Shown: piece after piece, positions 14,691 through 43,819 of the stretch
How positions within the stretch are numbered: the stretch's first letter is position 1
How the letters are laid out: each line of letters begins with the position of its first letter
Assembly: GCF_022846255.1 (NCBI RefSeq)
Contig: NZ_AP025682.1
DNA length: 64,000 bases
From: Escherichia coli
GTDB taxonomy: Bacteria > Pseudomonadota > Gammaproteobacteria > Enterobacterales > Enterobacteriaceae
Strand: one strand, 5' to 3'
Notes under the pieces: model-generated
Told to the model about the DNA's origin: nothing
The model's input: only the letters and a program-made list of their open reading frames with translations
The model's database searches: none
Made by a program: the position numbers and the translations under genes

Positions 14691-14712
14691 CGAATTAACA
14701 GGAACACAGAAC

Positions 14713-15537: not shown

Positions 15538-15546
15538 GGAGCAAAC

Positions 15547-15861: not shown

Positions 15862-15901
15862 TGAGTTGCGGTGCCGGAAAATATCCAGCACCGCGCCTTC
15901 A

Positions 15902-17296: not shown

Positions 17297-17649
17297 TATT
17301 TACGTTCCCTGAAATAAAGGAGACCCTACGCTTTCCAAAAGGAATACGTATATAGAGAAATATAAGGTGTGCACTTTCGAATTTTTAATCCAACTTCAGC
17401 AGGCCGATGGATAGTATCCCGCTGCATAATATGAGTAAATCCGCTGATTTCCTGGAACGTGAGGAATATAACAATAGTGCCGTTTTTAACTAAATATCGT
17501 AAAAAATATTAGATATAATTCACGCTGACTCATAAGCCACAAATATAAATAACGCTTAAACAAATTATCTGAGACATTTTAACATTCACAAAATCATTAA
17601 ATAATGATACTTTATTCACAAAATTTATCCTTCACTCTGCTTTATATTG

Positions 17650-18204: not shown

Positions 18205-18291
18205 TACACGCGTTTTGTTTATGAGAAAATAACAAAATTCACGAAATGAATAAGTCCTGTAATTTAATATATATCGCAGGACTTATTTTAA

Positions 18292-19125: not shown

Positions 19126-19318
19126 TTTCTCTTAACCAGATAAGAACACACACACCAACATTATGGTATTCTGTTACAAACCCTTCCTGGATGGAGGGAA
19201 ATTGAGCCAATTCTGGACCTTTGCGGCCCCTTCCGCAAAGAAAAATAACTCCCACTCCCTGCACACTCAGCAAGCGAATGTAAATGGGACGTGACAATGT
19301 CGAAACAAGGAGCAATCC

Positions 19319-22300
19319 ATGCAGGTCAGCAGAAGGCAGTTCTTTAAGATCTGCGCTGGCGGTATGGCAGGCACCACGGCGGCGGCACTGGGTTTTGCAC
19401 CCAGCGTAGCACTCGCGGAAACCCGGCAGTATAAACTGCTGCGCACCCGCGAAACCCGTAATACCTGCACCTATTGTTCCGTAGGCTGTGGGCTGTTGAT
19501 GTACAGCCTCGGTGACGGAGCAAAAAACGCCAAAGCATCTATCTTCCATATCGAAGGTGACCCGGATCACCCGGTCAACCGCGGAGCACTTTGTCCGAAA
19601 GGCGCTGGCCTGGTGGATTTCATCCACTCCGAAAGCCGTCTGAAGTTTCCGGAATACCGTGCGCCAGGTTCTGATAAATGGCAGCAAATCAGTTGGGAAG
19701 AGGCGTTTGATCGCATCGCCAAACTGATGAAAGAAGACCGCGATGCAAACTACATTGCGCAAAACGCCGAAGGCGTGACTGTTAACCGCTGGCTCTCCAC
19801 CGGGATGCTGTGTGCTTCCGCGTCGAGTAACGAAACCGGCTATTTAACGCAAAAATTCTCCCGCGCGCTGGGTATGCTCGCGGTCGACAACCAGGCGCGT
19901 GTCTGACACGGACCAACGGTAGCAAGTCTTGCTCCAACATTTGGTCGCGGTGCGATGACCAACCACTGGGTCGACATCAAGAATGCCAACCTCGTCGTGG
20001 TGATGGGCGGTAACGCCGCTGAAGCTCACCCGGTCGGGTTCCGCTGGGCGATGGAAGCCAAAATTCACAACGGCGCGAAGCTGATTGTGATCGATCCTCG
20101 CTTTACGCGTACGGCGGCGGTGGCTGACTACTATGCCCCTATCCGTTCCGGTACTGACATTGCTTTCCTGTCAGGCGTATTGCTGTACCTGCTGAACAAT
20201 GAAAAATTCAACCGCGAATACACCGAAGCCTATACCAACGCCAGCCTGATCGTGCGTGAGGATTACGGCTTTGAAGATGGCCTGTTCACCGGCTACGACG
20301 CGGAAAAACGCAAGTACGATAAGTCCACCTGGACTTACGAACTGGACGAAAACGGCTTCGCCAAACGCGATACTACCCTGCAACATCCACGTTGCGTGTG
20401 GAACTTGCTGAAACAGCACGTTTCCCGCTACACGCCAGATGTGGTTGAAAACATCTGTGGTACGCCAAAAGACGCATTCCTGAAAGTCTGCGAATACATC
20501 GCCGAAACCAGTGCTCACGATAAAACAGCGTCGTTCCTCTACGCCCTCGGCTGGACGCAACACTCCATCGGTGCGCAGAACATCCGTACGATGGCGATGA
20601 TCCAGTTGCTGCTCGGCAATATGGGGATGGCTGGCGGCGGCGTTAACGCCCTGCGCGGTCACTCCAATATTCAGGGGCTGACCGACCTGGGGCTGCTGTC
20701 GCAGAGTCTGCCAGGTTACATGACGTTGCCAAGCGAGAAGCAGACCGATCTGCAAACTTACCTCGCTGCCAACACGCCAAAACCACTGCTGGAAGGCCAG
20801 GTCAACTACTGGGGCAACTACCCGAAATTCTTCGTCTCAATGATGAAGGCATTCTTTGGTGATAAAGCGACGGCGGAAAATAGCTGGGGCTTTGACTGGT
20901 TGCCGAAGTGGGATAAAGGCTACGACGTCCTGCAATACTTCGAGATGATGAAAGAGGGCAAGGTCAATGGCTATATCTGCCAGGGCTTTAACCCTGTTGC
21001 CTCATTCCCGAACAAAAACAAAGTGATCGGCTGTCTGTCGAAGCTGAAATTCCTCGTAACTATCGACCCGCTGAACACTGAAACCTCTAACTTCTGGCAG
21101 AACCACGGTGAGCTGAACGAAGTTGACTCGTCGAAGATCCAGACCGAAGTGTTCCGTCTGCCATCGACCTGCTTCGCGGAAGAGAACGGTTCAATCGTTA
21201 ACTCTGGTCGCTGGTTGCAATGGCACTGGAAAGGTGCGGACGCCCCGGGGATTGCGCTGACTGATGGCGAGATCCTCTCCGGTATCTTCCTGCGCTTGCG
21301 CAAGATGTATGCCGAACAGGGTGGTGCGAACCCGGACCAGGTGCTGAACATGACCTGGAACTACGCCATTCCGCATGAGCCATCTTCAGAAGAAGTGGCA
21401 ATGGAGAGCAACGGCAAAGCGCTGGCCGATATTACCGACCCGGCAACCGGTGCGGTTATCGTCAAGAAAGGCCAACAACTTAGCTCGTTCGCCCAACTGC
21501 GCGATGACGGTACAACCTCCTGTGGCTGCTGGATTTTCGCCGGTAGCTGGACGCCGGAAGGCAACCAGATGGCGCGTCGTGATAACGCCGATCCGTCTGG
21601 CCTCGGTAACACGCTGGGCTGGGCATGGGCATGGCCGCTTAACCGCCGCATTCTGTATAACCGCGCCTCCGCAGATCCGCAGGGTAACCCATGGGATCCG
21701 AAGCGTCAGTTGCTGAAATGGGACGGCACTAAGTGGACCGGCTGGGATATTCCGGATTACAGCGCAGCGCCTCCGGGCAGCGGCGTAGGGCCGTTTATCA
21801 TGCAGCAGGAAGGCATGGGACGTCTGTTTGCCCTCGATAAGATGGCGGAAGGTCCGTTCCCGGAACACTACGAGCCGTTTGAAACGCCGCTGGGAACTAA
21901 CCCGCTGCATCCAAACGTTATCTCGAACCCGGCGGCGCGTATCTTTAAAGACGACGCCGAAGCATTGGGTAAAGCCGATAAGTTCCCGTATGTCGGAACC
22001 ACCTATCGTCTGACCGAGCACTTCCACTACTGGACCAAACACGCGCTGTTGAATGCGATTTTGCAACCAGAGCAGTTTGTGGAAATCGGGGAGTCGCTGG
22101 CGAATAAACTTGGCATTGCCCAGGGCGATACTGTGAAAGTCTCCTCCAACCGTGGCTATATCAAAGCCAAAGCGGTAGTGACCAAACGTATTCGCACGCT
22201 GAAAGCAAACGGCAAAGATATCGATACCATCGGTATTCCGATTCACTGGGGCTATGAAGGTGTTGCGAAAAAAGGCTTTATTGCCAATACGTTGACGCCA

Positions 22301-27127: not shown

Positions 27128-28048
27128 ATGAGTTCTACTATGGCACTGGAAAAAGGAATTGCAGAGTTAGTCGAAGAGTTTATCGCTGCGGGTCGCCCCT
27201 CATCGCGCCAACAAAGTATTACGCAGCGCAGAGAGGGCTATATCGCCAGCGCTGTCCTTGCGGGTGAGACAGAAACGCGGGTAGATATTCAGACTATCGA
27301 ACTTGAAGGGATGACCTTACGAATAGTGTCACCGCTGAATGCCCCGACATTACTCCCGACGATAATTTATTACTACGGTGGCTGTTTTGTTAGCGGCGGG
27401 TTCGCAACTCACGACAACCAGCTGCGCCAGTTAGCCTATTACGGGCAATGTCGGATTATTGCCGTCCAGTATCGGCTGGCACCGGAACATACTTTCCCCG
27501 CCGCCCATGATGATGCACAACGAGGTGCAGAATTAGTCCGGCAACACGCCGAACGACTCGGCGTTGATAAACAACGAATAACTCTTGCCGGTGACAGTGC
27601 GGGAGGGCATCTGGCGCTGGTAACTGCTTTGCGATTGAAGCGTGCTGGCGAGTGGCAACCAGCACAACTCATCTTAATTTATCCTATGCTTGATGCGACT
27701 GCGCATTTCGAAAGCTACATACGCAATGGTCACGATTACATCATCACACGCGACACTTTACTGAGCGGCTTTGAGATGTACCTGCCAGGCATTGAACGCA
27801 GGCATCCTGAAGCCAGCCCTATTTGGCGCAATGATTTCAATGGCTTGCCACCTGTACATATCATTACCGCTGAATACGACCCACTTTGCGATGAAGGTGA
27901 AGCGTTGTATCACCGCATGACAGGGCAAGGAGTGCAATGCACCTGCCAACGCTACCTTGGCGTTATCCACGGATTTTTTCAGTTAGGTGGTATCAGTGAG
28001 GCTGCGCGATCGGCGCTACGGGATGTTGCCTGGAGAGCGGGAAGGTAA
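27128..28048 (+). CDS. Alpha/beta-hydrolase, hormone-sensitive-lipase-type esterase (Aes-like)
   Basis: Oxyanion-hole motif YYYGGCFVSGG (HGG-type) and nucleophile elbow GDSAGG; C-terminal HGF; start placed at ATG 27128 (MSSTMALEKG), alternatives at 27065 (GTG) and 27140. Confidence 0.7.
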   Translation: MSSTMALEKGIAELVEEFIAAGRPSSRQQSITQRREGYIASAVLAGETETRVDIQTIELEGMTLRIVSPLNAPTLLPTIIYYYGGCFVSGGFATHDNQLRQLAYYGQCRIIAVQYRLAPEHTFPAAHDDAQRGAELVRQHAERLGVDKQRITLAGDSAGGHLALVTALRLKRAGEWQPAQLILIYPMLDATAHFESYIRNGHDYIITRDTLLSGFEMYLPGIERRHPEASPIWRNDFNGLPPVHIITAEYDPLCDEGEALYHRMTGQGVQCTCQRYLGVIHGFFQLGGISEAARSALRDVAWRAGR

Positions 28049-28111
28049 CTCCGGACCAGGGCCCAGAAAAGGTTTTCAGATTGAAAACCTTTTCAGTCAA
28101 GTAAAACGCCC

Positions 28112-29101: not shown

Positions 29102-29535
29102 ACCTGCAACCAGAATGTCACGGGGCCATCATTGACCAGCGATACCTGCATATCCGCAGCGAAGCGTCCTGTTTGCGTGTTCATCTCTTGCTGACGGCAG
29201 CGTTCGACGAAATAGTCATATAACGCCTCTGCGCGATCCGGTGATGCGCCTTTGGAGAAACTTGGGCGCATCCCCCGTTCGGTATCTGCGGCAAGGGTAA
29301 ACTGGGAAACCACCAGTACACTGCCGCCCGCCTGTTGCACGTTGAGATTCATCTTGCCTTCGGCATCGCTAAAGATGCGGTAGCCGAGCACACGCTCGCA
29401 CAGACGGTTTGCTTTCTGTTCGTCGTCATCCTTTTCGACACCCAATAACACCAAAAGTCCCGCGCCAATTTCACCCGTCACTTCTCCCTCCACGGTGACG
29501 CTGGCACGGGTTACGCGTTGAATTAATGCAATCAT
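29098..29535 (-). CDS. dtd: D-aminoacyl-tRNA deacylase
   Basis: 145 aa; [55 protein letters not shown]... Confidence 0.95.
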
Positions 29536-30404
29536 GGTTCGTCGTCTTCTTCTTGTTCAGCAGCTTGTTTTAATTTGCGGTATTCCCCGAGAGTGACAGT
29601 AATTTCCGCGCCAAGCAAGACGATACACCATGTCCAGTAGACCCAAACAAAGAGAATGGGGATCACCGCCAGCACACCGTAAATGAGCTGATATGATGGG
29701 AACATGGTGATATAAAGCGCGAAACCTTTCTTTCCTGCTTCGAACAGGAGCGCGGCGACAAACGCGCCGACAATCGCGTCGCGGTTAGGTACACGGATGG
29801 TAGGAACGATGCTGTACAGCAGCCAGAAAGAGATCCACGACAACAGCAGCGGAAAAATACGCAACACATTATCGATGACAGTATTGAGATCGCTCGCCCA
29901 GCGCAGAGAGAGCAGATAGGAGCTGATCGCCAGACTGGCCCCTGCCAACAGCGGCCCCAGCGTTAAAATCATCCAGTACACGGCAAACGAGTAAATTTTG
30001 GGTCGCGCTCGTTTACTGCGCCAGATGGTATTCAACGCGCTATCGATGGAGTACATCAACAATAACGCCGTGACGATCAGCCCGCACGCCCCGACGGCGG
30101 TCATTTTGTTGGAATTGGCGACAAACTGTTCGATATATCGCTGGATAACATCGCCAGTAGCAGGCAGAAAGTTGGCAAAAATAAAGTGACGCAACTGAAT
30201 GCTGACGTCGGAAAACATGGGAAAAGCGGCGAAAAGCGCAAAAACAACGGCAACCAGCGGCACTAATGAGAGCAACGACACATAGGCAAGGTTACCTGCC
30301 AAGGTTGTCATGTTGTCCTCATCAATGCGTTGCCAGAGTAGTTTTAGCCAGGCCCATAGTGGACGGGTACGATGCCTGGCTTTGTCCTGAATGGTTTTTA
30401 GCAT
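29532..30404 (-). CDS. yihY: Inner-membrane protein YihY (BrkB/YihY family)
   Basis: 290 aa; multi-TM; synteny dtd–yihY–yihX. Confidence 0.9.
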
Positions 30405-30997
30405 AACACCTTCGCGAAATAGTCCGGGATGGTGGTTTTATCTTTCACCAGAATACTAGTAATGCCTAGCCGATTAGCTCCTTCTATATTATCGGCGTTA
30501 TCGTCGAAAAAGACCGTATCGTCTGGTGAAAAACCTTCTGCCTGCAAAACATGCTGATAAATTCGTGCTTCAGGTTTGCGCATACCCAAGTCTTGCGACA
30601 GATAGATATGGTCAGCAGCATCACGGATTTCCGGGTATTCCTCCGGCCAGAAGGTAGTATGCAGGCGGTTAGTATTGGAAAGCACCACCACGCGATGCCC
30701 CTGCTCACGCAGTTTATGCATGATGGCGATCACTTCCGGTCGTAGCGCAACAAATACCGCCTGCCAACCGTGGGAGAACTGCTCATAGCTTAGCGGCAGG
30801 GCCATCTCATGACACAGTGCCTCTGCGAACGCTTCGTCGCTAATTTCCCCACGCTCATGCTGATGAAACGCCTCGCCCATGTGGAAACTCTTCTTAAGCG
30901 TAGCCAGTGGAACACGCGTTAAATCGCTCCAGGCCCCCAGCACACGGTTAAAGTCGATATCGACAATCACATTACCTAAATCAAAGATATAGAGCAT
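30398..30997 (-). CDS. yihX: HAD-family alpha-D-glucose-1-phosphate phosphatase YihX
   Basis: [25 protein letters not shown]... (HAD motif I DxGxV); 199 aa from the internal Met. Confidence 0.9.
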
Positions 30998-31095
30998 TTT
31001 TGCCTCCTTTCGCGCCACAAGAAATTAACTGTAGCGGGAAAGGATGGGTTTGGCTATGTGGCCAAGTGTGAAGCCAGGTCAACGGTCACAAAATT

Positions 31096-31881
31096 CTACG
31101 CGTCTTCCTGGGGAAGGATGATTTCAATTTGGCTGTCTTGTAAGCGTGATTTTAGCGCAGCGGGCGGCAGCTCGTCGGTAAAGAGCGCAGTGACCTGTGC
31201 CACGTTACCAATTTCAACCGCCGCCGAAGCATGATACTTAGTGTGATCGGCGACCAGCAGGATATTTCTCGCGTGCGCCATCATCGTTTTCACCACGTTA
31301 GCTTCGTTAACATCAAACTCCATCAACGCGCCATCGCTCTCGATTGCGCCTACGCTTGTTACCAGATAATCTGCGCGAAAATCGGCCACAAAGGACGCCG
31401 CTGAAGGGCCAATGATCCCACTGTTATGGGAACGCAGCGTTCCGCCAGGCACCATCACTTCAAAGCGCGGGTTGTGGTAAAGAATATGCGCCACACGCAG
31501 GCTGTTGGTGATTATCCGCAAATGGTTATGGTTAAGTAACGCCCGGGCAACATGCTCAACGGTCGTACCAATGGTGATAAATATTGTTGAACCATCAGGA
31601 ATATAATCTGCCACCGCTTCGGCAATCGCTTTTTTTTCTTCGGTTTGCGAAACCTCACGCTGCTCGAACGCCGTATTAACGACGCTGGAAGCCCGACCCG
31701 CGCCACCGTGATGGCGCGTAATCAGTCCTTGCTCGCTTAATTTACGAATATCCCGGCGCACCGTCTGCGTGGAGACATCCAGCAGATTTGCCAGCTCATC
31801 AATATTCATATACCCACGCTCGGCGATCAGCATGAGGAGTTGGTCGTGCCGCGGGTTACCGGTTAGTTCGGTAAGGCTCAT
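31096..31881 (-). CDS. yihW: DeoR-family repressor of sulfoquinovose catabolism (CsqR/YihW)
   Basis: MSLTELTGNPRHDQLLMLIAERGYMNIDELANLLDVSTQTVRRDIRKL...; HTH plus sugar-binding domain; 261 aa from the internal Met. Confidence 0.9.
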   Translation of the reverse strand: MSLTELTGNPRHDQLLMLIAERGYMNIDELANLLDVSTQTVRRDIRKLSEQGLITRHHGGAGRASSVVNTAFEQREVSQTEEKKAIAEAVADYIPDGSTIFITIGTTVEHVARALLNHNHLRIITNSLRVAHILYHNPRFEVMVPGGTLRSHNSGIIGPSAASFVADFRADYLVTSVGAIESDGALMEFDVNEANVVKTMMAHARNILLVADHTKYHASAAVEIGNVAQVTALFTDELPPAALKSRLQDSQIEIILPQEDA

Positions 31882-31914
31882 GAAAATTCCTCGAAAAACC
31901 ATCACCCTGGCATT

Positions 31915-32811
31915 TTATACAAAAAGTGACAAAAAAGATCGGGTTTGATCACAGTCAGGGATCCCAGCTCGTCCACCGGGACGTGTGCATTTTAACGCCG
32001 CTACACCGCTGGCGAAGCGGACTGACTCCGCTAAATCCCCACCTGTGGCCAGCGCCACCGCCAAAGCGCCGTGAAAAACATCACCCGCTCCTGTGGTATC
32101 TACCACATCAACTTTGAAGGCCGGTTGATGTTGACGCCCGCCATTTTCCAGCCAGTCGCAGCCTGCGCTGCCCTGGGTCACATAGACATGACCATTTGTG
32201 AGCGTTTGTGCCTGTTTTAGGGCACTCGCCATCTCTTTCACGCCCGTTAAGCGCGCCAGACCCGGTTCTGAAAAAGCTGCATGATCGCTTAACGCCACCA
32301 GTTCGCTGATATCCTGCGGCGTAATATCACCGTCCAGCACGGTCATTACGCCCGCCTGCCGCGCCAGAGTGAAGGCTTTTTTCGCGCCGTCGTGCCAGCG
32401 TACATCTGCCAGCACCACGTCCCACTGAGAGAAATCAATTTCCTCCAACCACTCTGCATCAGGCAGTAGGTCTGGGCTGGGATAGTTAATGATGATGCGC
32501 TCACCTTTGGCATCCACCATGATGGCGGATTGCGAAGATTTCGCCTGGTTATACCGTTTGGTGTAACGGGTGTTAACACCCCAGGATTCCAGCTCTGCCA
32601 GCAGGCTGTTGCCCGTGTCGTCGTCACCGACGCGACCAATAAAATCGACCTGCGCACCTAGTCTGGCCGCCGCAACTGCTGCTGTAGCCGCTGGCCCGCC
32701 GCCAACTTCCGTATAATTTTTCGCCACGTATTTACCGCTCTCCGTCGGCAATCCTTCCACGTAATAGATGCGATCCATCACGGTAATTCCTACACAAGCA
32801 ACACGAATCAT
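31915..32811 (-). CDS. yihV: 6-deoxy-6-sulfofructose kinase (PfkB family)
   Basis: MIRVACVGITVMDRIYYVEGLPTESGKYVAKNYTEVGGGPAATAAVAAARLGA...; C-terminal DTTGAGD motif; 298 aa. Confidence 0.9.
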   Translation of the reverse strand: MIRVACVGITVMDRIYYVEGLPTESGKYVAKNYTEVGGGPAATAAVAAARLGAQVDFIGRVGDDDTGNSLLAELESWGVNTRYTKRYNQAKSSQSAIMVDAKGERIIINYPSPDLLPDAEWLEEIDFSQWDVVLADVRWHDGAKKAFTLARQAGVMTVLDGDITPQDISELVALSDHAAFSEPGLARLTGVKEMASALKQAQTLTNGHVYVTQGSAGCDWLENGGRQHQPAFKVDVVDTTGAGDVFHGALAVALATGGDLAESVRFASGVAALKCTRPGGRAGIPDCDQTRSFLSLFV

Positions 32812-32817
32812 GGTCAT

Positions 32818-32978
32818 TCCTTAAGCATTTTGGGATGCGTTCATTTTAATTTCATCAATTGTTTAAAAAGTGACGGCTGTCAATTTTTTGACGATAAATT
32901 ACAAATACGATCAAAAACAGACAAGCAAGGCATGTCATAAATGACAAAAAGTGACATCACTGTATTCAGGAGAGAGTT
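32818..32978. promoter_or_regulatory. Divergent yihV / yihUTS… control region with repeated AAAAAGTGAC motifs (candidate CsqR operators)
   Basis: aaaaagtgac at 32864-32873 and 32945-32954, plus a third copy at 31921-31930 upstream of yihW; also near-palindrome tgtcataaatgaca. Confidence 0.4.
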
Positions 32979-33875
32979 ATGGCAGCAATCGCGTTTATCG
33001 GTTTAGGGCAAATGGGTTCGCCAATGGCGAGCAATTTATTGCAGCAAGGGCATCAACTTTGCGTCTTCGATGTGAATACCGAAGCCGTACAGCATCTGGT
33101 CGACAAAGGGGCGACTCCCGCTGCTAACCCAGCGCAGGCCGCTAAAGGTGCCGAATTTATCATTACCATGTTGCCGAATGGCGATCTGGTGCGTCACGTG
33201 TTGTTCGGTGAAAACGGTGTCTGTGAGAGCTTATCTTCCGATGCGCTGGTCATTGATATGTCGACCATCCACCCGCTGCAAACCGATAAATTGATTGCTG
33301 ATATGCAGGCCAGAGGCTTCAGCATGATGGATGTTCCGGTAGGCCGTACTTCCGCAAATGCCATTACCGGTACTCTGCTACTGCTGGCTGGCGGCACTGC
33401 TGAACAAGTTGAACGCGCCACGCCGATCCTGATGGCGATGGGCAGCGAGTTGATCAACGCGGGCGGTCCGGGCATGGGGATCCGCGTTAAGCTTATCAAC
33501 AACTACATGAGCATCGCGCTCAATGCGTTGTCGGCAGAAGCCGCCGTTTTGTGCGAAGCCCTCAATCTTCCCTTCGATGTTGCCGTCAAGGTAATGAGCG
33601 GTACTGCCGCCGGTAAAGGCCACTTCACCACTTCCTGGCCGAACAAAGTCCTCAGCGGAGATCTTTCTCCCGCCTTCATGATCGATCTTGCCCATAAGGA
33701 TCTTGGCATCGCCCTTGATGTCGCCAACCAGTTGCATGTGCCGATGCCACTGGGGGCCGCCTCACGGGAGGTTTATAGCCAGGCGCGCGCAGCGGGTCGC
33801 GGTCGCCAGGACTGGTCCGCCATTCTGGAGCAGGTCCGTGTCAGTGCCGGGATGACTGCCAAAGTAAAAATGTAA
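32979..33875 (+). CDS. yihU: 3-sulfolactaldehyde reductase (beta-hydroxyacid dehydrogenase family)
   Basis: [33 protein letters not shown]... (Rossmann GxGxxG); 298 aa. Confidence 0.9.
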
Positions 33876-33898
33876 CGACTGGATAAAGGAATAAATGA

Positions 33899-34777
33899 AT
33901 GAATAAGTACACCATCAACGACATTACGCGTGCATCGGGCGGTTTTGCCATGCTGGCGGTCGATCAGCGCGAAGCCATGCGCATGATGTTTGCCGCGGCT
34001 GGCGCACCCGCTCCAGTAGCCGATAGCGTTTTAACTGATTTCAAAGTTAACGCCGCGAAGACTCTTTCACCTTATGCATCGGCGATTCTGGTAGATCAAC
34101 AATTCTGCTACCGCCAGGTGGTTGAGCAAAACGCGATTGCCAAAAGTTGCGCCATGATTGTCGCCGCCGATGAGTTCATTCCTGGCAACGGTATTCCGGT
34201 AGATAGCGTGGTCATTGACCGCAAAATCAATCCGCTACAAATCAAACAAGACGGTGGCAAAGCCTTAAAACTGCTGGTGCTGTGGCGTAGTGATGAAGAT
34301 GCGCAGCAACGCCTGGATATGGTGAAAGAGTTTAACGAAATGTGCCACTCACACGGTCTGGTAAGCATCATTGAGCCAGTCGTCCGCCCACCGCGTCGTG
34401 GCGATAAATTCGATCGCGAACAAGCAATCATCGATGCAGCCAAAGAGCTGGGCGACAGTGGCGCTGATCTCTACAAAGTTGAAATGCCGCTTTACGGTAA
34501 AGGTCCGCAACAAGAGCTTCTCAGTGCTTCACAACGTCTGAATGACCATATCAATATGCCGTGGGTGATCCTCTCTTCCGGTGTCGACGAAAAACTGTTC
34601 CCGCGTGCCGTACGCGTGGCAATGACAGCGGGTGCATCGGGCTTCCTGGCTGGTCGTGCCGTCTGGGCATCGGTCGTCGGTTTACCAGACAACGAGCTGA
34701 TGCTGCGTGACGTTTGCGCACCGAAATTACAACAACTTGGCGATATCGTCGACGAAATGATGGCTAAACGCCGTTAA
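33899..34777 (+). CDS. yihT: 6-deoxy-6-sulfofructose-1-phosphate aldolase
   Basis: 292 aa; [37 protein letters not shown]... Confidence 0.9.
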
Positions 34778-34792
34778 GATGGGGATACAAAA

Positions 34793-36034
34793 ATGAAATG
34801 GTTTAACACTTTAAGTCACAACCGTTGGCTGGAACAGGAAACCGATCGCATCTTTGATTTTGGTAAAAAATCCGTAGTACCGACCGGATTTGGCTGGTTA
34901 GGCAATAAAGGGCAAATCAAAGAAGAGATGGGCACCCATCTGTGGATCACAGCTCGTATGTTGCACGTTTATTCCGTTGCTGCGGCGATGGGCCGACCTG
35001 GCGCTTACTCGTTGGTTGATCACGGTATCAAAGCCATGAATGGCGCACTGCGCGATAAAAAATATGGCGGTTGGTATGCCTGCGTGAATGACGAGGGCGT
35101 GGTGGATGCCTCCAAACAGGGCTATCAACATTTCTTTGCTCTGCTGGGTGCTGCCAGCGCCGTCACTACCGGTCATCCGGAAGCGCGCAAGCTGCTCGAT
35201 TACACCATTGAAATTATCGAGAAATACTTCTGGAGCGAAGAAGAGCAGATGTGCCTGGAGTCCTGGGATGAAGCCTTCAGCAAAACCGAAGAGTATCGCG
35301 GCGGCAATGCCAATATGCACGCGGTGGAAGCCTTCCTGATTGTCTATGACGTCACCCATGACAAAAAATGGCTGGATCGCGCGATTCGCGTGGCTTCCGT
35401 GATTATCCACGACGTCGCCAGAAATAATCATTATCGCGTTAACGAACACTTCGATACCCAGTGGAATCCGCTGCCAGATTACAACAAAGATAACCCGGCG
35501 CACCGCTTCCGCGCGTTCGGAGGTACTCCGGGCCACTGGATCGAATGGGGCCGTTTAATGCTGCACATTCACGCGGCCCTGGAAGCCCGTTGCGAACAAC
35601 CGCCAGCATGGCTGCTAGAAGATGCCAAAGGTCTGTTTAACGCCACCGTGCGCGATGCCTGGGCACCCGATGGCGCGGACGGGATTGTTTATACCGTTGA
35701 CTGGGAAGGAAAACCGGTGGTCCGCGAACGTGTGCGTTGGCCTATCGTCGAAGCGATGGGTACGGCCTACGCGCTCTACACCGTCACTGGCGATCGCCAG
35801 TACGAAACTTGGTATCAGACATGGTGGGACTACTGCATCAAATACCTGATGGACTACGAAAATGGTTCATGGTGGCAGGAGCTGGATGCGGACAATAAGG
35901 TCACCACCAAAGTCTGGGACGGCAAACAGGATATTTATCATCTGCTGCATTGTCTGGTGATCCCACGTATCCCGTTAGCGCCAGGCCTGGCTCCGGCGGT
36001 TGCGGCGGGTCTGCTGGATATTAACGCGAAATAA
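34793..36034 (+). CDS. yihS: Sulfoquinovose isomerase
   Basis: 413 aa; [47 protein letters not shown]... Confidence 0.9.
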
Positions 36035-36100
36035 CTGACTAAAAAAACGACATATCAGGCTGCACGCCGGGTATGTCGTTATTCAATAAAGGTACCTCGT

Positions 36101-37003
36101 ATGCAAATCACCAACATGCATTGCAGTGGACAGACCGTTTCACTTGCCGCGGGGGATTATCACGCGACCATTGTGACCGTCGGTGCAGGTCTGGCTGAAT
36201 TAACCTTTCAGGGCTGTCATTTAGTTATTCCGCATAAACCCGAAGAGATGCCGCTGGCACATCTGGGCAAAGTCCTTATTCCGTGGCCAAACCGGATCGC
36301 CAACGGCTGTTATCGCTATCAGGGGCAGGAATATCAGTTACCCATTAATGAACATGGTTCAAAAGCCGCTATTCATGGGCTGCTCGCCTGGCGTGACTGG
36401 CAAATCAGCGAATTAAGCGCCACCAGCGTCACATTAACCGCCTTTCTGCCACCCAGTTACGGCTACCCGTTTATGCTGGCTTCGCAGGTGGTTTATTCGC
36501 TCAACGCCCGCACGGGTCTTTCCGTTGAGATCGCAAGCCAGAATATCGGCACTGTCGCAGCGCCTTACGGTGTGGGTATTCACCCTTATTTAACCTGCAA
36601 CTTAACATCTGTTGATGAATATCTGTTCCAGCTTCCGGCAAACCAAGTTTATGCCATCGATGAGCACGCTAATCCGACAACGCTTCACCACGTTGATGAG
36701 CTGGATTTAAATTTCACGCAGGCGAAAAAAATAGCCGCGACAAAAATCGACCACACCTTTAAAACCGCTAATGATTTGTGGGAAATGACTATTACCCATC
36801 CACAGCAGGCGCTTTCGGTGAGCCTCTGTTCCGATCAACCCTGGGTGCAGGTTTATAGCGGTGAAAAATTACAACGTCAGGGACTGGCAGTTGAACCAAT
36901 GAGTTGCCCGCCTAACGCCTTTAATTCAGGTATCGACTTATTATTACTGGAACCAGGGAAAACGCACCGCCTGTTTTTTAATATTCACGGGCAGCACAAT
37001 TAA
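36101..37003 (+). CDS. yihR: Aldose-1-epimerase-like (sulfoquinovose mutarotase) YihR
   Basis: 300 aa; MQITNMHCSGQTVSLAAGDYHATIVTVGAGLAELTFQGCHLVIPHKPEEMPLAH... Confidence 0.85.
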   Translation: MQITNMHCSGQTVSLAAGDYHATIVTVGAGLAELTFQGCHLVIPHKPEEMPLAHLGKVLIPWPNRIANGCYRYQGQEYQLPINEHGSKAAIHGLLAWRDWQISELSATSVTLTAFLPPSYGYPFMLASQVVYSLNARTGLSVEIASQNIGTVAAPYGVGIHPYLTCNLTSVDEYLFQLPANQVYAIDEHANPTTLHHVDELDLNFTQAKKIAATKIDHTFKTANDLWEMTITHPQQALSVSLCSDQPWVQVYSGEKLQRQGLAVEPMSCPPNAFNSGIDLLLLEPGKTHRLFFNIHGQHN

Positions 37004-37063
37004 TTTTATTAAGAAAAGAACGAGATCATTGTTTAGAGTTGTATTTACACAACAGGAAATATT

Positions 37064-37939
37064 ATGGACTTTTTTACGTTATTTTCACCGGATGGGGTCA
37101 TGCTGGAAACAAACGTGGTATGTATCGTTATCGCGTTAATGTTTCTTTATACCTTTGTGGGGATATGCGCGGGATTTGGCGGTGGTTTAACCACCATGCC
37201 GCTCGTCACGTTAATGCTCCCCGTAAAAATGGCAACTCCGCTCTCGGTGATTGTCGGCACCGCGACCGCCTTGTACGCCACCTGGCTGTCACGTAAAGAA
37301 ACGGATTGGCGATCGGCAATGGTACTGATTATTTTCTCGTTTCTGGGAATACCCGTCGGTTTATATGCGCTGTCGTATTTACCCGACCATTTTATGAAAG
37401 TGGGCTTAGGCGGATTCCTTATCCTGTACTCCTTTTACAGTATGTTTATTCCACGCCTGCCGATTTATGACCGTAGCTGGATCGCCGCACCTATCGGCGC
37501 CGTGGCAGGAGCGTTAGGGGCAGCATTTTCAACCAACGGACCGCCGATGGTTATCTACGGTATGCTGCGTAACTTAGGCCCGGCGGCATTTCGCGGCACT
37601 CTGAACGCTTTCTTCACCGCAAACAACATCGCGGTGATCGGCGGGCTGGCGACCAGCGGAATTTTGACTGTCTCTATCTTTAAACTGGTGCTGTTTTGTA
37701 TTCCCACCATGATCCTCGGTTCACTGGTTGGACAATATGTGCATAAACGCATTTCGGTCAAAGTGTTCCGTGTGATGGTCTTTTTATTGCTGATTGCCTC
37801 CGGTTCTATGTTGATAAAAGGCGCGCTGGGAATTCCCGCCGCTGCCGCACTTCTTCCTCCGTTTACCTTGTTAGTTATACTGCAACTGGCATTTGGTAAA
37901 AAAGTGGCGGCAATCCGTCGGGCGGAAGAAAGTAAATAA
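37064..37939 (+). CDS. TauE/SafE-family (DUF81) membrane permease; not a K-12 yih gene as far as I recall
   Basis: 291 aa; polytopic hydrophobic protein with Gly-rich TM segments (GFGGGLTTMPLVTLML, GAVAGALGAAFSTNGPPMVIYG) typical of TauE/SafE anion exporters; RBS aggaaatatt before ATG. Confidence 0.7.
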   Translation: MDFFTLFSPDGVMLETNVVCIVIALMFLYTFVGICAGFGGGLTTMPLVTLMLPVKMATPLSVIVGTATALYATWLSRKETDWRSAMVLIIFSFLGIPVGLYALSYLPDHFMKVGLGGFLILYSFYSMFIPRLPIYDRSWIAAPIGAVAGALGAAFSTNGPPMVIYGMLRNLGPAAFRGTLNAFFTANNIAVIGGLATSGILTVSIFKLVLFCIPTMILGSLVGQYVHKRISVKVFRVMVFLLLIASGSMLIKGALGIPAAAALLPPFTLLVILQLAFGKKVAAIRRAEESK

Positions 37940-38044
37940 TCATTATGCGGGTTTTAATTTATACCCGCACACATTCTTTAATTAATGAAACCTGTAATAA
38001 CAGGATGGCATGAAATATTAGTTTTATATCTATGGAGATTATTT

Positions 38045-40081
38045 ATGGATACGCCACGCCCACAGCTATTAGATTTTCAATTTCATCAGAATAACGACAG
38101 TTTTACTCTACGTTTTCAAGACCGCCTTATTTTAATCCATAGCAAAGATAATCCTTGTTTATGGATTGGTTCAGGTATAGCGGATATCGATATGTTCCGC
38201 GGTAATTTCAGCATTAAAGATAAATTGCAGGAGAAAATTGCGCTTACCGACGCCATCGTCAGCCAGTCACCGGATGGCTGGTTAATCCATTTCAGCCGTG
38301 GTTCTGACATTAGCGCCACGCTGAATATCTCTGCCGACGATCATGGCCGTTTATTGCTGGAACTACAAAACGACAACCTTAACCACAACCGCATCTGGCT
38401 GCGCCTTGCCGCACAGCCGGAAGATCATATCTACGGCTGCGGCGAACAATTCTCCTACTTTGATCTGCGCAGCAAACCGTTCCCGCTGTGGACCAGTGAA
38501 CAAGGCGTTGGTCGCAACAAACAAACCTATGTCACCTGGCAGGCCGACTGCAAAGAGAATGCGGGAGGGGATTACTACTGGACCTTCTTTCCACAACCCA
38601 CGTTTGTTAGCACGCAGAAGTATTACTGCCATGTTGATAACAGTTGCTATATGAACTTCGACTTTAGCGCGCCGGAATACCATGAACTGGCGCTGTGGGA
38701 AGACAAAGCAACACTGCGTTTTGAATGTGCTGATACATACATCTCCCTGCTGGAAAAATTAACCGCGCTGCTGGGACGCCAGCCAGAACTGCCCGACTGG
38801 ATTTATGACGGAGTAACGCTCGGCATTCAGGGCGGCACTGAGGTGTGCCAGAAGAAACTGGACACCATGCGTAACGCGGGCGTGAAGGTCAACGGCATCT
38901 GGGCGCAGGATTGGTCCGGTATTCGTATGACCTCTTTTGGCAAACGCGTAATGTGGAACTGGAAGTGGAACAGCGAAAACTACCCGCAACTGGATTCACG
39001 TATCAAGCAGTGGAACAAAGAGGGCGTACAGTTCCTTGCCTATATCAACCCGTATGTTGCCAGCGATAAAGACCTCTGCGAAGAAGCGGCAAAGCGCGGC
39101 TATCTGGCAAAAGATGCCGCCGGCGGCGATTATCTGGTGGAGTTTGGCGAGTTCTACGGCGGCGTTGTCGATCTCACTAATCCGGAAGCCTACGCCTGGT
39201 TCAAGGAAGTGATCAAAAAGAACATGATTGAACTCGGCTGCGGCGGCTGGATGGCTGACTTCGGCGAGTATCTGCCCACCGACACTTACCTGCATAACGG
39301 CGTCAGCGCCGAAATTATGCATAACGCCTGGCCTGCGCTGTGGGCGAAATGTAACTACGAAGCCCTTGAAGAAACGGGCAAGCTCGGCGAGATCCTCTTC
39401 TTTATGCGCGCCGGTTCCACCGGTAGCCAAAAATATTCCACCATGATGTGGGCGGGCGACCAGAACGTTGACTGGAGTCTGGACGATGGACTGGCGTCTG
39501 TCGTCCCGGCGGCGCTGTCGCTGGCAATGACCGGACATGGCCTGCATCACAGTGATATTGGCGGTTACACCACCCTGTTTGAGATGAAGCGCAGCAAAGA
39601 GCTGCTGCTGCGCTGGTGCGATTTCAGCGCCTTCACGCCGATGATGCGCACCCATGAAGGTAACCGTCCAGGCGACAACTGGCAGTTTGATAGCGACGCG
39701 GAAACTATCGCCCATTTTGCCCGTATGACCACCGTCTTCACTACCCTGAAACCTTACCTGAAAGAGGCCGTCGCGCTGAATGCGAAGTCCGGCCTGCCGG
39801 TTATGCGCCCGCTGTTCCTGCATTACGAAGACGATGCACAGACCTACACCCTGAAATATCAGTACCTGTTAGGCCGCGACATTCTGGTCGCTCCGGTGCA
39901 TGAAGAAGGCCGTAGCGACTGGACGCTCTATCTGCCGGAGGATAACTGGGTCCACGCCTGGACGGGTGAAGCGTTCCGGGGCGGGGAAGTGACCGTTAAT
40001 GCGCCCATCGGTAAACCGCCGGTCTTTTATCGCGCCGATAGCGAATGGGCGGCACTGTTCGCGTCGTTAAAAAGCATCTAA
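38045..40081 (+). CDS. yihQ: Sulfoquinovosidase (GH31)
   Basis: MDTPRPQLLDFQFHQNNDSFTLRFQDRLILIHSKDNPCLWIGSG...; GH31 catalytic region (…WAQDWSGIRM…, …WMADFGEYLP…); 678 aa from the internal Met. Confidence 0.9.
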   Translation: MDTPRPQLLDFQFHQNNDSFTLRFQDRLILIHSKDNPCLWIGSGIADIDMFRGNFSIKDKLQEKIALTDAIVSQSPDGWLIHFSRGSDISATLNISADDHGRLLLELQNDNLNHNRIWLRLAAQPEDHIYGCGEQFSYFDLRSKPFPLWTSEQGVGRNKQTYVTWQADCKENAGGDYYWTFFPQPTFVSTQKYYCHVDNSCYMNFDFSAPEYHELALWEDKATLRFECADTYISLLEKLTALLGRQPELPDWIYDGVTLGIQGGTEVCQKKLDTMRNAGVKVNGIWAQDWSGIRMTSFGKRVMWNWKWNSENYPQLDSRIKQWNKEGVQFLAYINPYVASDKDLCEEAAKRGYLAKDAAGGDYLVEFGEFYGGVVDLTNPEAYAWFKEVIKKNMIELGCGGWMADFGEYLPTDTYLHNGVSAEIMHNAWPALWAKCNYEALEETGKLGEILFFMRAGSTGSQKYSTMMWAGDQNVDWSLDDGLASVVPAALSLAMTGHGLHHSDIGGYTTLFEMKRSKELLLRWCDFSAFTPMMRTHEGNRPGDNWQFDSDAETIAHFARMTTVFTTLKPYLKEAVALNAKSGLPVMRPLFLHYEDDAQTYTLKYQYLLGRDILVAPVHEEGRSDWTLYLPEDNWVHAWTGEAFRGGEVTVNAPIGKPPVFYRADSEWAALFASLKSI

Positions 40082-40126
40082 TCACATCCGCCCGTGGGGA
40101 AACTCACGGGCAAAGGGAGAACAACG

Positions 40127-41512
40127 ATGAGTCACATCACAACGGAAGATCCAGCAACTCTACGCCTGCCCTTTAAAGAGAAACTCTCTTACGGTATCGG
40201 CGATCTGGCCTCTAACATCCTACTGGATATCGGCACGCTTTATCTTTTGAAGTTTTATACCGATGTTCTGGGGCTGCCTGGCACCTATGGCGGCATTATC
40301 TTTTTGATTTCAAAATTCTTTACCGCCTTTACCGATATGGGTACCGGCATTATGTTGGATTCCCGACGCAAGATCGGTCCAAAAGGTAAGTTCCGTCCTT
40401 TTATTCTGTATGCGTCATTTCCGGTCACCCTGCTGGCGATCGCCAACTTTGTCGGCACACCGTTTGATGTCACCGGTAAAACGGTGATGGCCACCATCCT
40501 GTTTATGCTTTACGGACTGTTTTTCAGCATGATGAACTGCTCGTATGGCGCGATGGTCCCCGCTATTACTAAAAACCCCAACGAACGCGCCTCACTGGCG
40601 GCATGGCGTCAGGGTGGCGCTACATTGGGCCTGCTGCTTTGTACGGTGGGATTCGTGCCGGTTATGAATCTTATCGAGGGTAATCAGCAACTTGGCTATA
40701 TCTTCGCCGCCACGCTGTTTTCACTGTTCGGCCTGCTGTTTATGTGGATCTGCTATTCGGGCGTGAAAGAGCGTTATGTCGAAACCCAACCTACCAATCC
40801 GGCGCAAAAGCCTGGCTTGTTGCAATCTTTCCGCGCAATTGCGGGGAACCGCCCACTGTTCATTTTGTGCATTGCCAACCTCTGTACCTTAGGGGCGTTT
40901 AACGTCAAGCTCGCCATTCAGGTCTATTACACCCAGTACGTGCTTAACGATCCCATCCTGTTGTCATATATGGGATTTTTCAGCATGGGCTGTATTTTCA
41001 TCGGCGTGTTCCTGATGCCTGGTGCAGTCAGACGTTTTGGTAAGAAGAAGGTCTATATCGGCGGTCTGCTGATCTGGGTGCTGGGCGATCTGCTCAACTA
41101 TTTCTTCGGCGGCGGCTCGGTCAGCTTTGTGGCTTTCTCCTGCCTGGCGTTCTTTGGTTCGGCGTTTGTTAACAGCCTGAACTGGGCGCTGGTTTCTGAC
41201 ACCGTCGAGTACGGCGAGTGGCGCACCGGTGTGCGTTCAGAAGGTACGGTCTACACCGGTTTCACCTTCTTTCGCAAAGTATCTCAGGCGCTGGCAGGTT
41301 TCTTCCCAGGCTGGATGCTGACGCAAATTGGCTATGTGCCAAACGTCGCCCAGGCTGACCACACTATCGAAGGGTTGCGCCAACTGATCTTCATCTACCC
41401 AAGCGCACTGGCAGTAGTCACCATTGTGGCAATGGGTTGCTTCTACAGTCTGAACGAGAAGATGTACGTCCGCATTGTTGAAGAGATAGAAGCCCGTAAA
41501 CGCACGGCGTAA
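40127..41512 (+). CDS. yihP: GPH-family sugar:cation symporter YihP
   Basis: MSHITTEDPATLRLPFKEKLSYGIGDLASNILLDIGTLYLLKFYTDVLGLP...; 12-TM. Confidence 0.85.
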   Translation: MSHITTEDPATLRLPFKEKLSYGIGDLASNILLDIGTLYLLKFYTDVLGLPGTYGGIIFLISKFFTAFTDMGTGIMLDSRRKIGPKGKFRPFILYASFPVTLLAIANFVGTPFDVTGKTVMATILFMLYGLFFSMMNCSYGAMVPAITKNPNERASLAAWRQGGATLGLLLCTVGFVPVMNLIEGNQQLGYIFAATLFSLFGLLFMWICYSGVKERYVETQPTNPAQKPGLLQSFRAIAGNRPLFILCIANLCTLGAFNVKLAIQVYYTQYVLNDPILLSYMGFFSMGCIFIGVFLMPGAVRRFGKKKVYIGGLLIWVLGDLLNYFFGGGSVSFVAFSCLAFFGSAFVNSLNWALVSDTVEYGEWRTGVRSEGTVYTGFTFFRKVSQALAGFFPGWMLTQIGYVPNVAQADHTIEGLRQLIFIYPSALAVVTIVAMGCFYSLNEKMYVRIVEEIEARKRTA

Positions 41513-41554
41513 TTATAATAAACAACGCCCTGCGGGGCGTTATAAGGAGTGATT

Positions 41555-42958
41555 ATGTCTGACCATAATCCACTGACATTAAAACTGAATCTGCGGGAAA
41601 AAATCGCCTATGGTATGGGCGACGTCGGTTCGAATTTAATGCTTAGCATCGGCACTCTGTATCTCCTCAAATTTTATACCGATGAATTAGGGATGCCTGC
41701 TTACTATGGCGGGATTATCTTTCTGGTGGCGAAATTCTTTACCGCATTTACCGATATGCTCACCGGATTTTTACTCGACTCGCGGAAAAATATTGGACCT
41801 AAAGGAAAATTCAGGCCGTTTATTTTATACGCAGCGATTCCGGCGGCGTTAATTGCAACGCTCCAGTTTATCGCCACCACCTTTAGTTTGCCGGTTAAAA
41901 CGACGATTGCCACCGCACTGTTTATGATGTTTGGACTTTCATACAGTCTGATGAACTGCTCGTATGGCGCGATGATCCCGGCCATTACCAAAAACCCGAA
42001 TGAGCGCGCGCAACTCGCTGCTTACCGCCAGGGTGGTGCAACCATAGGGCTATTGATCTGTACCGTGGCGTTTATTCCTTTGCAGTCACTATTTTCTGAC
42101 TCCACCGTCGGCTACGCCTGCGCGGCACTGATGTTCTCCATTGGCGGCTTTATTTTTATGATGCTGTGCTACAGAGGTGTCAAAGAGCATTATGTGGACG
42201 CGACGCCAACCGGACATAAGGCCAGTATTCTCAAATCATTTTGCGCGATATTTCGTAATCCACCTTTGCTGGTATTGTGCATTGCTAACCTGTGTACCCT
42301 GGCGGCATTTAATATCAAACTGGCGATTCAGGTCTATTACACCCAGTATGTGCTGAATGATATTAACTTATTGTCGTGGATGGGATTCTTTAGTATGGGA
42401 TGCATTCTCATCGGCGTATTACTGGTGCCACTAACTGTAAAATGTTTTGGTAAAAAACAGGTTTATCTGGCTGGCATGGTGCTGTGGGCGGTGGGGGATA
42501 TCCTGAATTATTGCTGGGGCAGTAACTCATTCACTTTCGTCATGTTCTCTTGTGTCGCCTTTTTTGGCACGGCCTTTGTAAACAGCCTGAACTGGGCACT
42601 GGTACCAGATACCGTAGATTATGGTGAATGGAAAACAGGTATACGTGCCGAAGGTTCTGTTTATACCGGTTATACCTTCTTTCGTAAAATTTCAGCCGCA
42701 CTTGCTGGCTTCTTGCCCGGCATTATGCTGACGCAAATCGGTTATATTCCCAACATCGCGCAAAGCGATGCAACATTACAGGGTTTGCGTCAGCTCATTT
42801 TTATCTGGCCTTGTGCGCTGGCAATTATTGCTGCATTGACGATGGGGTTCTTTTACACGCTCAATGAGAAACGGTTTGCACTGATTATTGAGGAAATTAA
42901 CCAACGCAAAAATAAAGAAATCGAGACAGAAGAAAAAACGGCTTCCGTAACGTTATAA
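41555..42958 (+). CDS. yihO: GPH-family sulfoquinovose transporter YihO
   Basis: MSDHNPLTLKLNLREKIAYGMGDVGSNLMLSIGTLYLLKFYTDELGMP...; paralogous to the preceding yihP. Confidence 0.85.
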   Translation: MSDHNPLTLKLNLREKIAYGMGDVGSNLMLSIGTLYLLKFYTDELGMPAYYGGIIFLVAKFFTAFTDMLTGFLLDSRKNIGPKGKFRPFILYAAIPAALIATLQFIATTFSLPVKTTIATALFMMFGLSYSLMNCSYGAMIPAITKNPNERAQLAAYRQGGATIGLLICTVAFIPLQSLFSDSTVGYACAALMFSIGGFIFMMLCYRGVKEHYVDATPTGHKASILKSFCAIFRNPPLLVLCIANLCTLAAFNIKLAIQVYYTQYVLNDINLLSWMGFFSMGCILIGVLLVPLTVKCFGKKQVYLAGMVLWAVGDILNYCWGSNSFTFVMFSCVAFFGTAFVNSLNWALVPDTVDYGEWKTGIRAEGSVYTGYTFFRKISAALAGFLPGIMLTQIGYIPNIAQSDATLQGLRQLIFIWPCALAIIAALTMGFFYTLNEKRFALIIEEINQRKNKEIETEEKTASVTL

Positions 42959-43025
42959 ATGTCAATAGCCGCTATTTCCATCCTGATGGGTGGCGGCCTC
43001 CCTACGTTTAAAAAATGGACTTATT

Positions 43026-43718
43026 ATGAAAAATATTAATGCAATAATTTTATTATCTTCTCTGACCTCTGCCTCGGTATTCGCTGGCGCATACGTCGAA
43101 AACAGGGAAGCATATAATCTCGCCTCCGATCAGGGCGAGGTTATGCTACGTGTGGGTTATAACTTCGATATGGGCGCGGGTATTATGCTAACCAATACCT
43201 ACACCTTTCAGCGAGAAGATTAACTCAAACATGGCTATAATGAAATTGAAGGTTGGTATCCTTTATTTAAACCTACCGATAAATTAACCATCCAGCCCGG
43301 TGGCTTAATTAATGACAAGAGTATCGGTTCGGGTGGTGCTGTTTATCTGGATGTTAACTACAAATTTACTCCGTGGTTTAACCTGACGGTGCGTAATCGC
43401 TATAACCATAATAATTACAGCTCTACAGATTTGAACGGCGAATTGGATAATAACGACACCTATGAAGTTGGCACCTACTGGAACTTTAAAATAACAGAAA
43501 AATTTTCCTATACATTTGAACCACATTACTTCATGCGAGTGAATGACTTTAATAGTAGCAACGGGAAAGATCATCATTGGGAAATCACTAACACCTTCCG
43601 TTACCGTATTAATGAACACTGGCTTCCTTATTTCGAATTGCGCTGGTTAGACCGCAACGTCGAGCCGTACCACCGCGAGCAAAACCAGATTCGTATCGGA
43701 ACGAAGTATTTCTTCTGA
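43026..43718 (+). pseudogene. ompL: ompL outer-membrane porin, disrupted by a premature TAA at 43221-43223 (codon 66)
   Basis: ORF 42990..43223 (signal peptide MKNINAIILLSSLTSASVFA...TFQRED*) and ORF 43389..43718 (...IRIGTKYFF) are in the same frame; translation after the stop continues LKHGYNEIEGWYPLFKPTDKLT... without further stops. Confidence 0.8.
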
Positions 43719-43770
43719 TGTAAAAATTCCTGATGCGATGCTGGCGCATCTTATCAGGTCTACAAAAGCC

Positions 43771-43803
43771 AAAAAAAACCTGCCATCGCTGGCAGGTTTT
43801 TTA
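43771..43803. terminator. Bidirectional intrinsic terminator between ompL and typA
   Basis: aaaaaaaacctgccatcgctggcaggtttttta: GC stem flanked by an A-run and a T-run. Confidence 0.6.
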
Positions 43804-43819
43804 TGACTAAAAAACGAAA

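Follow-up and report, generated by a model that had tools for sequence, protein, structure and literature searches.

A TauE/SafE-family permease gene between yihR and yihQ of Escherichia coli, a candidate C3-sulfonate exporter of the sulfoquinovose cassette

The yihR-yihQ interval and its gene

The window analysed here, a stretch of 64,000 bp from Escherichia coli (contig NZ_AP025682.1 of assembly GCF_022846255.1), contains a yih cassette for sulfoquinovose (SQ) breakdown in which a gene designated tauE is located between yihR and yihQ. A first-pass annotation of the sequence had described a 291-aa polytopic open reading frame (ORF) with a good ribosome-binding site, co-directional with yihUTSR and yihQPO. 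This description was confirmed by the AGGA upstream of the ATG, by hydropathy and structure prediction (see below) and by the RefSeq annotation, which places all these genes on the same strand. The locus that it had indicated, 37004-38044, does lie between yihR and yihQ; this span is the whole interval, of which the gene itself occupies 37064-37939. The sequence of E. coli FHI_NMBU_03 is 100% identical to the window at the tauE locus, and in the annotation of that strain the product of tauE is named 'sulfite exporter TauE/SafE family protein'. The features in and around the interval, in order of position, are:

31096..32811, - strand: csqR and yihV, the genes for the regulator and the sulfofructose kinase, divergent and upstream
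32979..36034, + strand: yihU-yihT-yihS, for sulfolactaldehyde (SLA) reductase, sulfofructose phosphate (SFP) aldolase and SQ isomerase, the head of the co-directional gene string
36101..37003, + strand: yihR, sulfoquinovose mutarotase, the upstream neighbour (RefSeq annotation of the identical strain; 96.7% aa identity to K-12 YihR)
37004..37063, + strand: yihR-tauE spacer of 60 nt, with no promoter-like or terminator-like site on the + strand (promoter and terminator scan)
37007..37985, unstranded, approximate: presence/absence segment of ~980 bp, in place of which K-12 has ~140 bp of AT-rich unrelated sequence (pairwise alignment)
37054..37059, + strand: Shine-Dalgarno-like AGGAAA, its AGGA at 37054-37057, 6 nt 5' of the tauE ATG (read from the sequence)
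37064..37939, + strand: tauE-like gene, a 291-aa ORF with ATG start and TAA stop and a PF01925 match (RefSeq WP_000345435.1)
37946..37969, + strand: imperfect hairpin TGCGGGTTTTAA/TTTATACCCGCA directly 3' of the tauE stop, lacking a T-run and not called as a terminator (inverted-repeat and terminator scans)
37991..38004, unstranded: palindrome CCTGTAATAACAGG with a perfect stem, ~40 nt upstream of the yihQ start codon (K-12 alignment; blastn-short match 37991-38010)
38045..40081, + strand: yihQ, sulfoquinovosidase, the downstream neighbour (RefSeq annotation; 98.4% aa identity to K-12 YihQ)
40127..41512, + strand: yihP, GPH/MFS_2 permease, the textbook 'putative 2,3-dihydroxypropane-1-sulfonate (DHPS) exporter' of K-12 (99.3% aa identity to K-12)
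41555..42958, + strand: yihO, GPH/MFS_2 permease, the SQ importer (RefSeq annotation of the identical strain)

The co-directional string reads yihU-yihT-yihS-yihR-tauE-yihQ-yihP-yihO-ompL, and the two paralogues YihP and YihO share 64.6% identity. The yihR-tauE spacer would be consistent with co-transcription of both genes from upstream; the overall counts of the promoter and terminator scan equalled the shuffled expectation, which makes the scan uninformative. The spacer between tauE and yihQ measures 105 nt. Its palindrome CCTGTAATAACAGG falls within the ~55 bp still common to the K-12 spacer and the window, with unrelated sequence to its left, and is a possible operator or RNA element for yihQPO expression. 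An Rfam search of 36900-38150 gave no match.

A separate TauE clade in sulfoglycolysis cassettes

The assignment to the DUF81/TauE-SafE family, made in the first pass, was upheld by a match to Pfam PF01925 (TauE; i-E 7.9e-35, score 121.1) that covers residues 23-248 of the protein and positions 2-235 of the 237 in the model. A precomputed PF01925 hit was present in all close homologues. Hydropathy showed 8-9 hydrophobic segments, and an AlphaFold2 model built with 77 homologues was all-helical, with 11 helices (predicted local distance difference test, pLDDT, 93.3; predicted TM-score, pTM, 0.89). Five of the helices (16-36, 40-49, 54-75, 82-105 and 108-128) form a first pseudo-repeat and five more (138-155, 159-168, 173-198, 203-227 and 232-255) a second, each consisting of a transmembrane helix, a short helix and three further transmembrane helices; an extra helix follows at 259-290. 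A BLASTP comparison of the two halves of the protein (residues 1-135 against 136-291) was by itself non-significant (best E 0.25, 27% identity over 73 aa). In the 77-sequence alignment G37, F38 and G39 (the GFG motif), G99 and F235 were invariant, and G145, G149, G159 and P160 were conserved in at least 90% of the sequences. Glycine-rich motifs are conserved at the helix breaks, as would be the case in the TauE/SafE or TSUP family (PF01925, TC 2.A.102). The protein is a polytopic membrane protein of this family.

The best Foldseek match in the PDB was the fold of the undecaprenyl-pyrophosphate phosphatase BacA/UppP (PDB 5oon and 6fmt; E 0.011, TM 0.45-0.51). This match is weak, with 16-17% identity and a score under the usual same-fold threshold, and BacA is an enzyme, not a transporter. 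We would take it only as a sign that no TSUP structure is solved.

When 1.84 billion 50%-identity representatives were searched, one close full-length cluster (80%) emerged, all other full-length relatives being at most 38% identical. The word-indexed search placed members of the close clade across Enterobacterales, among them Salmonella, Kluyvera, Enterobacter, Klebsiella, Raoultella, Hafnia, Mixta, Pantoea, Morganella, Lelliottia, Atlantibacter and Leminorella, and the clade was found in Edwardsiella and Vibrio owensii as well. Within the clade, which spans Enterobacterales and Vibrio, identity was 74-99%. Besides this gap from ~80% to ≤38%, which separates it from all other family members, the clade has the extra C-terminal helix (residues 259-291; 37838-37936), which carries an FGKKVAAIR motif in all 12 clade members, is followed by an acidic and lysine-rich tail, and is missing from both ~240-aa outgroup TauE proteins compared (P0127 and P0131). 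The tail is longer in K. quasipneumoniae, where the protein measures 313 aa. The nearest relatives outside the clade (P0127, P0130 and P0131; 34-38% identity) had contexts that were either short or uninformative and of no help on the substrate.

Twelve loci were picked from named hits, as a sample rather than an exhaustive census, and in all 12 the clade member was part of a sulfoglycolysis cassette. Five of these were of the sulfo-EMP type (EMP for Embden-Meyerhof-Parnas), with tauE either between yihR and yihQ (E. coli, E. whittamii and Salmonella) or between yihQ and an MFS gene (strain RIT691 and K. quasipneumoniae). The other seven, from Leminorella, Edwardsiella, Vibrio owensii, Hafnia, Kluyvera, E. 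kobei and Mixta, resembled the sulfo-Entner-Doudoroff (sulfo-ED) type. In the latter operon a LacI-type regulator and an SSF-type Na+/solute symporter are divergent from the genes for an IlvD/Edd dehydratase, an HpcH/HpaI aldolase, an aldose epimerase, an SGL-type lactonase, a HIBADH-type reductase, an SDR dehydrogenase and TauE, which starts 9 nt past the last enzyme gene. The HIBADH-type reductases are 27-31% identical to YihU, and the enzymes of this operon match the sulfo-ED set, except that a reductase stands where that set has an aldehyde dehydrogenase. Hafnia, Leminorella and Vibrio have been named as carriers of sulfo-ED clusters (PMC7491151). In the neighbour-joining tree the EMP-linked and the enterobacterial ED-linked proteins formed sister subclades, with the ED-linked Vibrio protein basal and a long branch to the outgroups.

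The two cassette types also meet at the genomic level. The ED-like cassette of Kluyvera ascorbata (locus 1068-10885) occupies the same slot, from yihX/yihY to typA/glnA, as the EMP cassette of E. coli. In E. kobei (locus 1095-20876) an ED-like cassette with TauE adjoins an EMP cassette with an MFS gene of its own and without yihR and tauE, as if shared functions were pooled. As for transporters, the K. quasipneumoniae EMP cassette encodes one MFS permease (73.7% identity to YihO, 68.3% to YihP) and TauE and no second MFS permease, and the ED-like cassettes encode one SSF symporter and TauE.

The gene lists of these cassettes bear on the RefSeq product name, which, if taken literally, would make the protein a sulfite exporter that clears sulfite from desulfonation. 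A paper title, too, calls the TauE of C. necator a sulfite exporter (PMC8873060). However, a desulfonating enzyme is absent from both cassette types, and sulfite would therefore not be expected as a product; the functions listed are limited to those of glycosidase, mutarotase, isomerase, kinase, aldolase, dehydrogenase, lactonase, dehydratase and reductase. In sulfo-EMP, moreover, the C-S bond of the excreted DHPS stays intact (PMC6278857), and identity to any TauE beyond the clade is ≤38%. We regard a literal sulfite exporter as very improbable. Cupriavidus necator H16 TauE and SafE, the name-givers of PF01925, were compared at the level of family and described role: they share with the present protein the HMM family, the polytopic permease character and a link to sulfonate metabolism. 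Theirs is C2-sulfonate degradation, with sulfite or sulfoacetate export.

Ancestry of tauE and its absence from K-12

In the K-12 derivatives BW25113 and MC1061 the gap between yihR and yihQ is 198 bp and tauE is absent, as the first-pass annotation had stated. The part that can be aligned to the window is limited to the first few bases past the stop codon of yihR and the final ~55 bp in front of yihQ. No tauE remnant was detected in the K-12 spacer by blastn-short or tblastn (best tblastn E 0.11, at noise level), and the ~140-bp filler showed no similarity to the window or to any of the related loci fetched.

The distribution of the gene was counted in 5,426 complete E. coli genomes, a collection skewed to clinical isolates. 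A tauE match was present in 1,296 genomes, essentially full length in 1,287 and with partial coverage only in the remaining nine; among the carriers are O157:H7 strains, at 97.1% identity, as well as an O25b:H4-ST131 genome, at 99.4%. The K-12-type junction was found in 2,517-2,650 genomes, mostly at ≥99% identity, and looks like a single allele. By megablast, yihUTS was present in 4,025 genomes. The ~1,400 genomes without a megablast match to yihUTS (e.g. H95, NZ_CP116188.1, and H30, NZ_CM169477.1), some of which keep only a few dozen bases beside yihQ, contradict the frequent claim that the full cassette belongs to the E. coli core genome. They are probably the 'short cassette' strains of PMC12608037.

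Salmonella enterica carries an orthologue in the identical yihR-tauE-yihQ slot, with 86.9% aa identity to the window. The flanking proteins are about equally diverged between the two (YihQ 86.9%, YihP 85.4%, YihO 84.8%, YihU 87.9% and YihT 87.7%), and the index of the assembly collection lists the exact Salmonella protein in 23,831 blocks, so that it is very widespread there. The same slot and a divergence equal to that of the flanking yih genes argue that the K-12 state is a derived loss. The same arrangement is present in E. whittamii, at 99% identity and with dN/dS 0.02. Between the window and Salmonella, pN of tauE was 0.08 and pS 0.78 (saturated). The gene is under strong purifying selection and, being intact in 1,287 complete E. 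coli genomes with a pN of 0.08 against a saturated pS, it is a genuine gene rather than a reading frame that arose by chance.

These data also leave little room for the idea that tauE is a decaying or functionless passenger which is being lost from E. coli. Its absence from about two thirds of the E. coli genomes with the long cassette and the partial coverage in nine genomes would fit such decay. However, the gene is full length in 1,287 of the 1,296 genomes with any trace of it, purifying selection is strong in both comparisons (E. whittamii and Salmonella), 74-99% identity is kept across Enterobacterales and Vibrio, and the gene junctions around tauE are tight or overlapping in other species. 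A passenger is hardly credible in view of this.

Insertion by a mobile element was considered and rejected. Insertion sequence and transposase genes are absent, as are meaningful repeats on either side, the G + C content is unremarkable (49.8% for tauE, 50.7% for the window), and the Salmonella orthologue in the same slot is equally diverged. A 12-nt direct repeat of 92% identity (CAGGAAATATTA at 37053-37064 and CATGAAATATTA at 38009-38020, 956 bp apart) brackets tauE; it lies off the K-12 deletion boundaries and is probably due to chance. The simplest history would be vertical inheritance with the cassette since before the split of Escherichia and Salmonella, followed by one replacement-deletion that came to dominate the K-12-like lineages. 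Judged from the labelled strains, the loss would fall in phylogroups A and B1, and B2 and E would have kept the gene.

In a sliding-window comparison the window and K-12 were 90-99% identical throughout the cassette, and no particular block stood out at the indel. Synonymous divergence was ~0.2 over the whole cassette (29500-43700; dS 0.15-0.26 per gene), which seems high for two E. coli strains against typical values of the species and suggests that the alleles at the yih locus are old.

A candidate role in C3-sulfonate export

Both cassette types share the substrate (SQ, hence the mutarotase), a C3-sulfonate product made by a reductase, and the TauE permease, and the identity of TauE between the two types is much higher than that of any other shared function. 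The pathway needs one importer and one exporter, and in the ED-like and Klebsiella cassettes TauE is the only transporter other than the symporter, which makes a role as exporter the parsimonious one. We favour, with moderate confidence, the reading that TauE exports the C3-sulfonate end product, DHPS in this sulfo-EMP cassette, and that it is an inner-membrane secondary transporter and an ancestral component of the cassette; for direction and substrate this reading draws on gene context. SQ would be imported by the canonical symporter, of the GPH/MFS YihO type in EMP cassettes or of the SSF type in ED-like ones, YihU would make DHPS, and TauE would carry DHPS out of the cytoplasm.

The first-pass annotation had called the exporter of E. 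coli not firmly assigned, and the literature agrees in that it goes no further than to call YihP the 'putative' or 'most likely' exporter of DHPS (PMC6278857, PMC8873060, PMC12890257). YihP and TauE are unrelated in fold and family. What they have in common is the cassette and the assigned step, which is a proposal for YihP as well (PMC6278857, PMC12890257). Since YihP is a 64.6% paralogue of the importer YihO, an importer role is at least as plausible for it. A yihO knock-out of K-12 does not grow on SQ (PMC6278857). The window and Salmonella have both YihP and TauE; of these two, K. quasipneumoniae has only TauE and K-12 only YihP.

Export is also the role predicted for similar proteins elsewhere. 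TauE-type proteins are the predicted exporters of sulfolactate (SL) or DHPS in sulfo-transaldolase (sulfo-TAL), sulfo-ED and actinobacterial sulfo-EMP clusters (PMC7491151, PMC8873060), and the notion of an exporter is in this sense the default of the field, applied to a gene that K-12-centred work has overlooked. SftE of the sulfo-TAL pathway (Bacillus aryabhattai and gut Firmicutes), TauE of Arthrobacter sp. AK04 (sulfo-EMP) and the sulfo-ED TauE resemble the present protein in PF01925 membership, in their position in an SQ operon beside a separate importer, and in the C3-sulfonate excretion proposed for them, which is a prediction there too (PMC7491151, PMC8873060). The SftE, Pseudomonas and Arthrobacter proteins were likened to it by family and description.

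Several points weigh against this reading. The searches provided no anchor for substrate specificity, as NCBIfam returned no family at E ≤ 0.01, hence no equivalog, and a PDB sequence search returned no structure at E ≤ 1. Transport direction is not readable from sequence, and that of export is taken from gene context. TsaS of Comamonas testosteroni, the founding TSUP member, shares the superfamily and a sulfonate substrate and differs in being an uptake system, for an aromatic sulfonate; as TsaS takes up its substrate and TauE and SafE export theirs, direction is not fixed within the family. The window strain has YihO, YihP and TauE together, so that the distributions of TauE and YihP are not cleanly complementary, and about two thirds of the long-cassette E. 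coli genomes have lost tauE. TauE/TSUP genes in sulfo-EMP and sulfo-ED clusters, the noting of which is credited to Denger 2014 and Felux 2015, have been described as importers (PMC8940949). Finally, K-12 grows on SQ and excretes DHPS without tauE (PMC6278857), so that export can do without tauE in one background at least. The proposal of the first pass that the gene supplies the missing export step consequently holds as far as candidacy goes, given that the clade lies in sulfoglycolysis cassettes at all 12 loci and always beside an uptake-type symporter; it does not hold for TauE as the only route in E. coli.

The description as importers leads to the view that TauE is an uptake permease for SQ, an SQ glycoside or another sulfonate, supplementing YihO and YihP. 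The name TSUP itself stands for '4-toluene sulfonate uptake permease' (papers cite Shlykov et al. 2012 for it), and uptake is the view stated in PMC8940949. The sharing of the gene between pathway types in E. kobei fits a substrate-side and a product-side role alike. Every cassette examined, however, already has an uptake-type sugar symporter (SSF or GPH/MFS_2), and uptake by TauE would leave the ED-like and Klebsiella cassettes with two importers and no exporter candidate. In K-12, deletion of yihO alone ends growth on SQ, which makes YihO the SQ importer there (PMC6278857). Uptake by TauE seems rather unlikely to us on these grounds.

Export of DHPS by the tauE-less K-12 (PMC6278857) could instead mean that bulk DHPS leaves through YihP and that TauE is a relief valve or exporter for another anion of the cassette, such as sulfolactate or sulfolactaldehyde under aerobic conditions. 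TauE has been linked to sulfolactate export in Arthrobacter AK04 (PMC8873060), and in Hafnia an aldehyde dehydrogenase gene adjoins the ED-like cassette, so that sulfolactate may be the product in some hosts. All tauE-carrying cassettes nevertheless encode a YihU-type or HIBADH-type reductase, and the Klebsiella cassette has no YihP that could carry DHPS. We consider such a division of labour improbable, although less so than the export of sulfite.

A wider form of the export hypothesis can be put forward tentatively. The TauE clade may be the original, pathway-independent C3-sulfonate exporter of enterobacterial sulfoglycolysis, common to the sulfo-EMP and sulfo-ED-like cassettes. In that case K-12 would be a derived form that is missing the exporter, YihP would not export DHPS at all and would be a second importer, paralogous to YihO, and DHPS would leave K-12 by another carrier.

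Part of this is already known, as the gene is annotated in RefSeq and TauE exporters are routinely proposed in sulfoglycolysis clusters; confirmation of export would be useful rather than surprising. Three points appear to be undiscussed in the literature searched: that tauE is ancestral to the cassette of Escherichia and Salmonella and was lost in K-12-type strains, that one isolated clade serves both cassette types, and that the distribution of TauE relative to YihP questions the assignment of YihP. A 2025 survey of yih cassette variants, which has published RNA-seq of K-12 and Nissle 1917, does not mention an 11th gene (PMC12608037). The finding corrects the idea that the 10-gene cassette of K-12 is the complete ancestral set. 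Export is the least well-founded step of textbook E. coli sulfoglycolysis, YihP having been named by elimination only, and the reference strain is without a conserved and selected transporter gene that Salmonella, O157:H7 and ST131 have kept. This provides a concrete candidate and natural, isogenic-like contrasts. DHPS from Enterobacteriaceae feeds sulfonate-respiring, H2S-making gut bacteria. If TauE is the original exporter, carriage of tauE (O157:H7, ST131 and Salmonella) as opposed to its loss (K-12-like A and B1 strains) would alter the rate at which DHPS is released to sulfidogenic gut partners.

Other differences from K-12 were observed in the window. The yihS-yihR spacer (36035-36100) measures 66 bp, against 137 bp in K-12, an indel of ~71 bp. 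The genes yihL-yihM-yihN, located between ompL and typA in K-12, are missing from the window (spacer at ~43719-43819) and from Salmonella. A higB/HTH toxin-antitoxin pair beside fabY is present in the window (~27339-28101) and in Salmonella and not in K-12, where a pseudogene fragment and yiiE are found instead.

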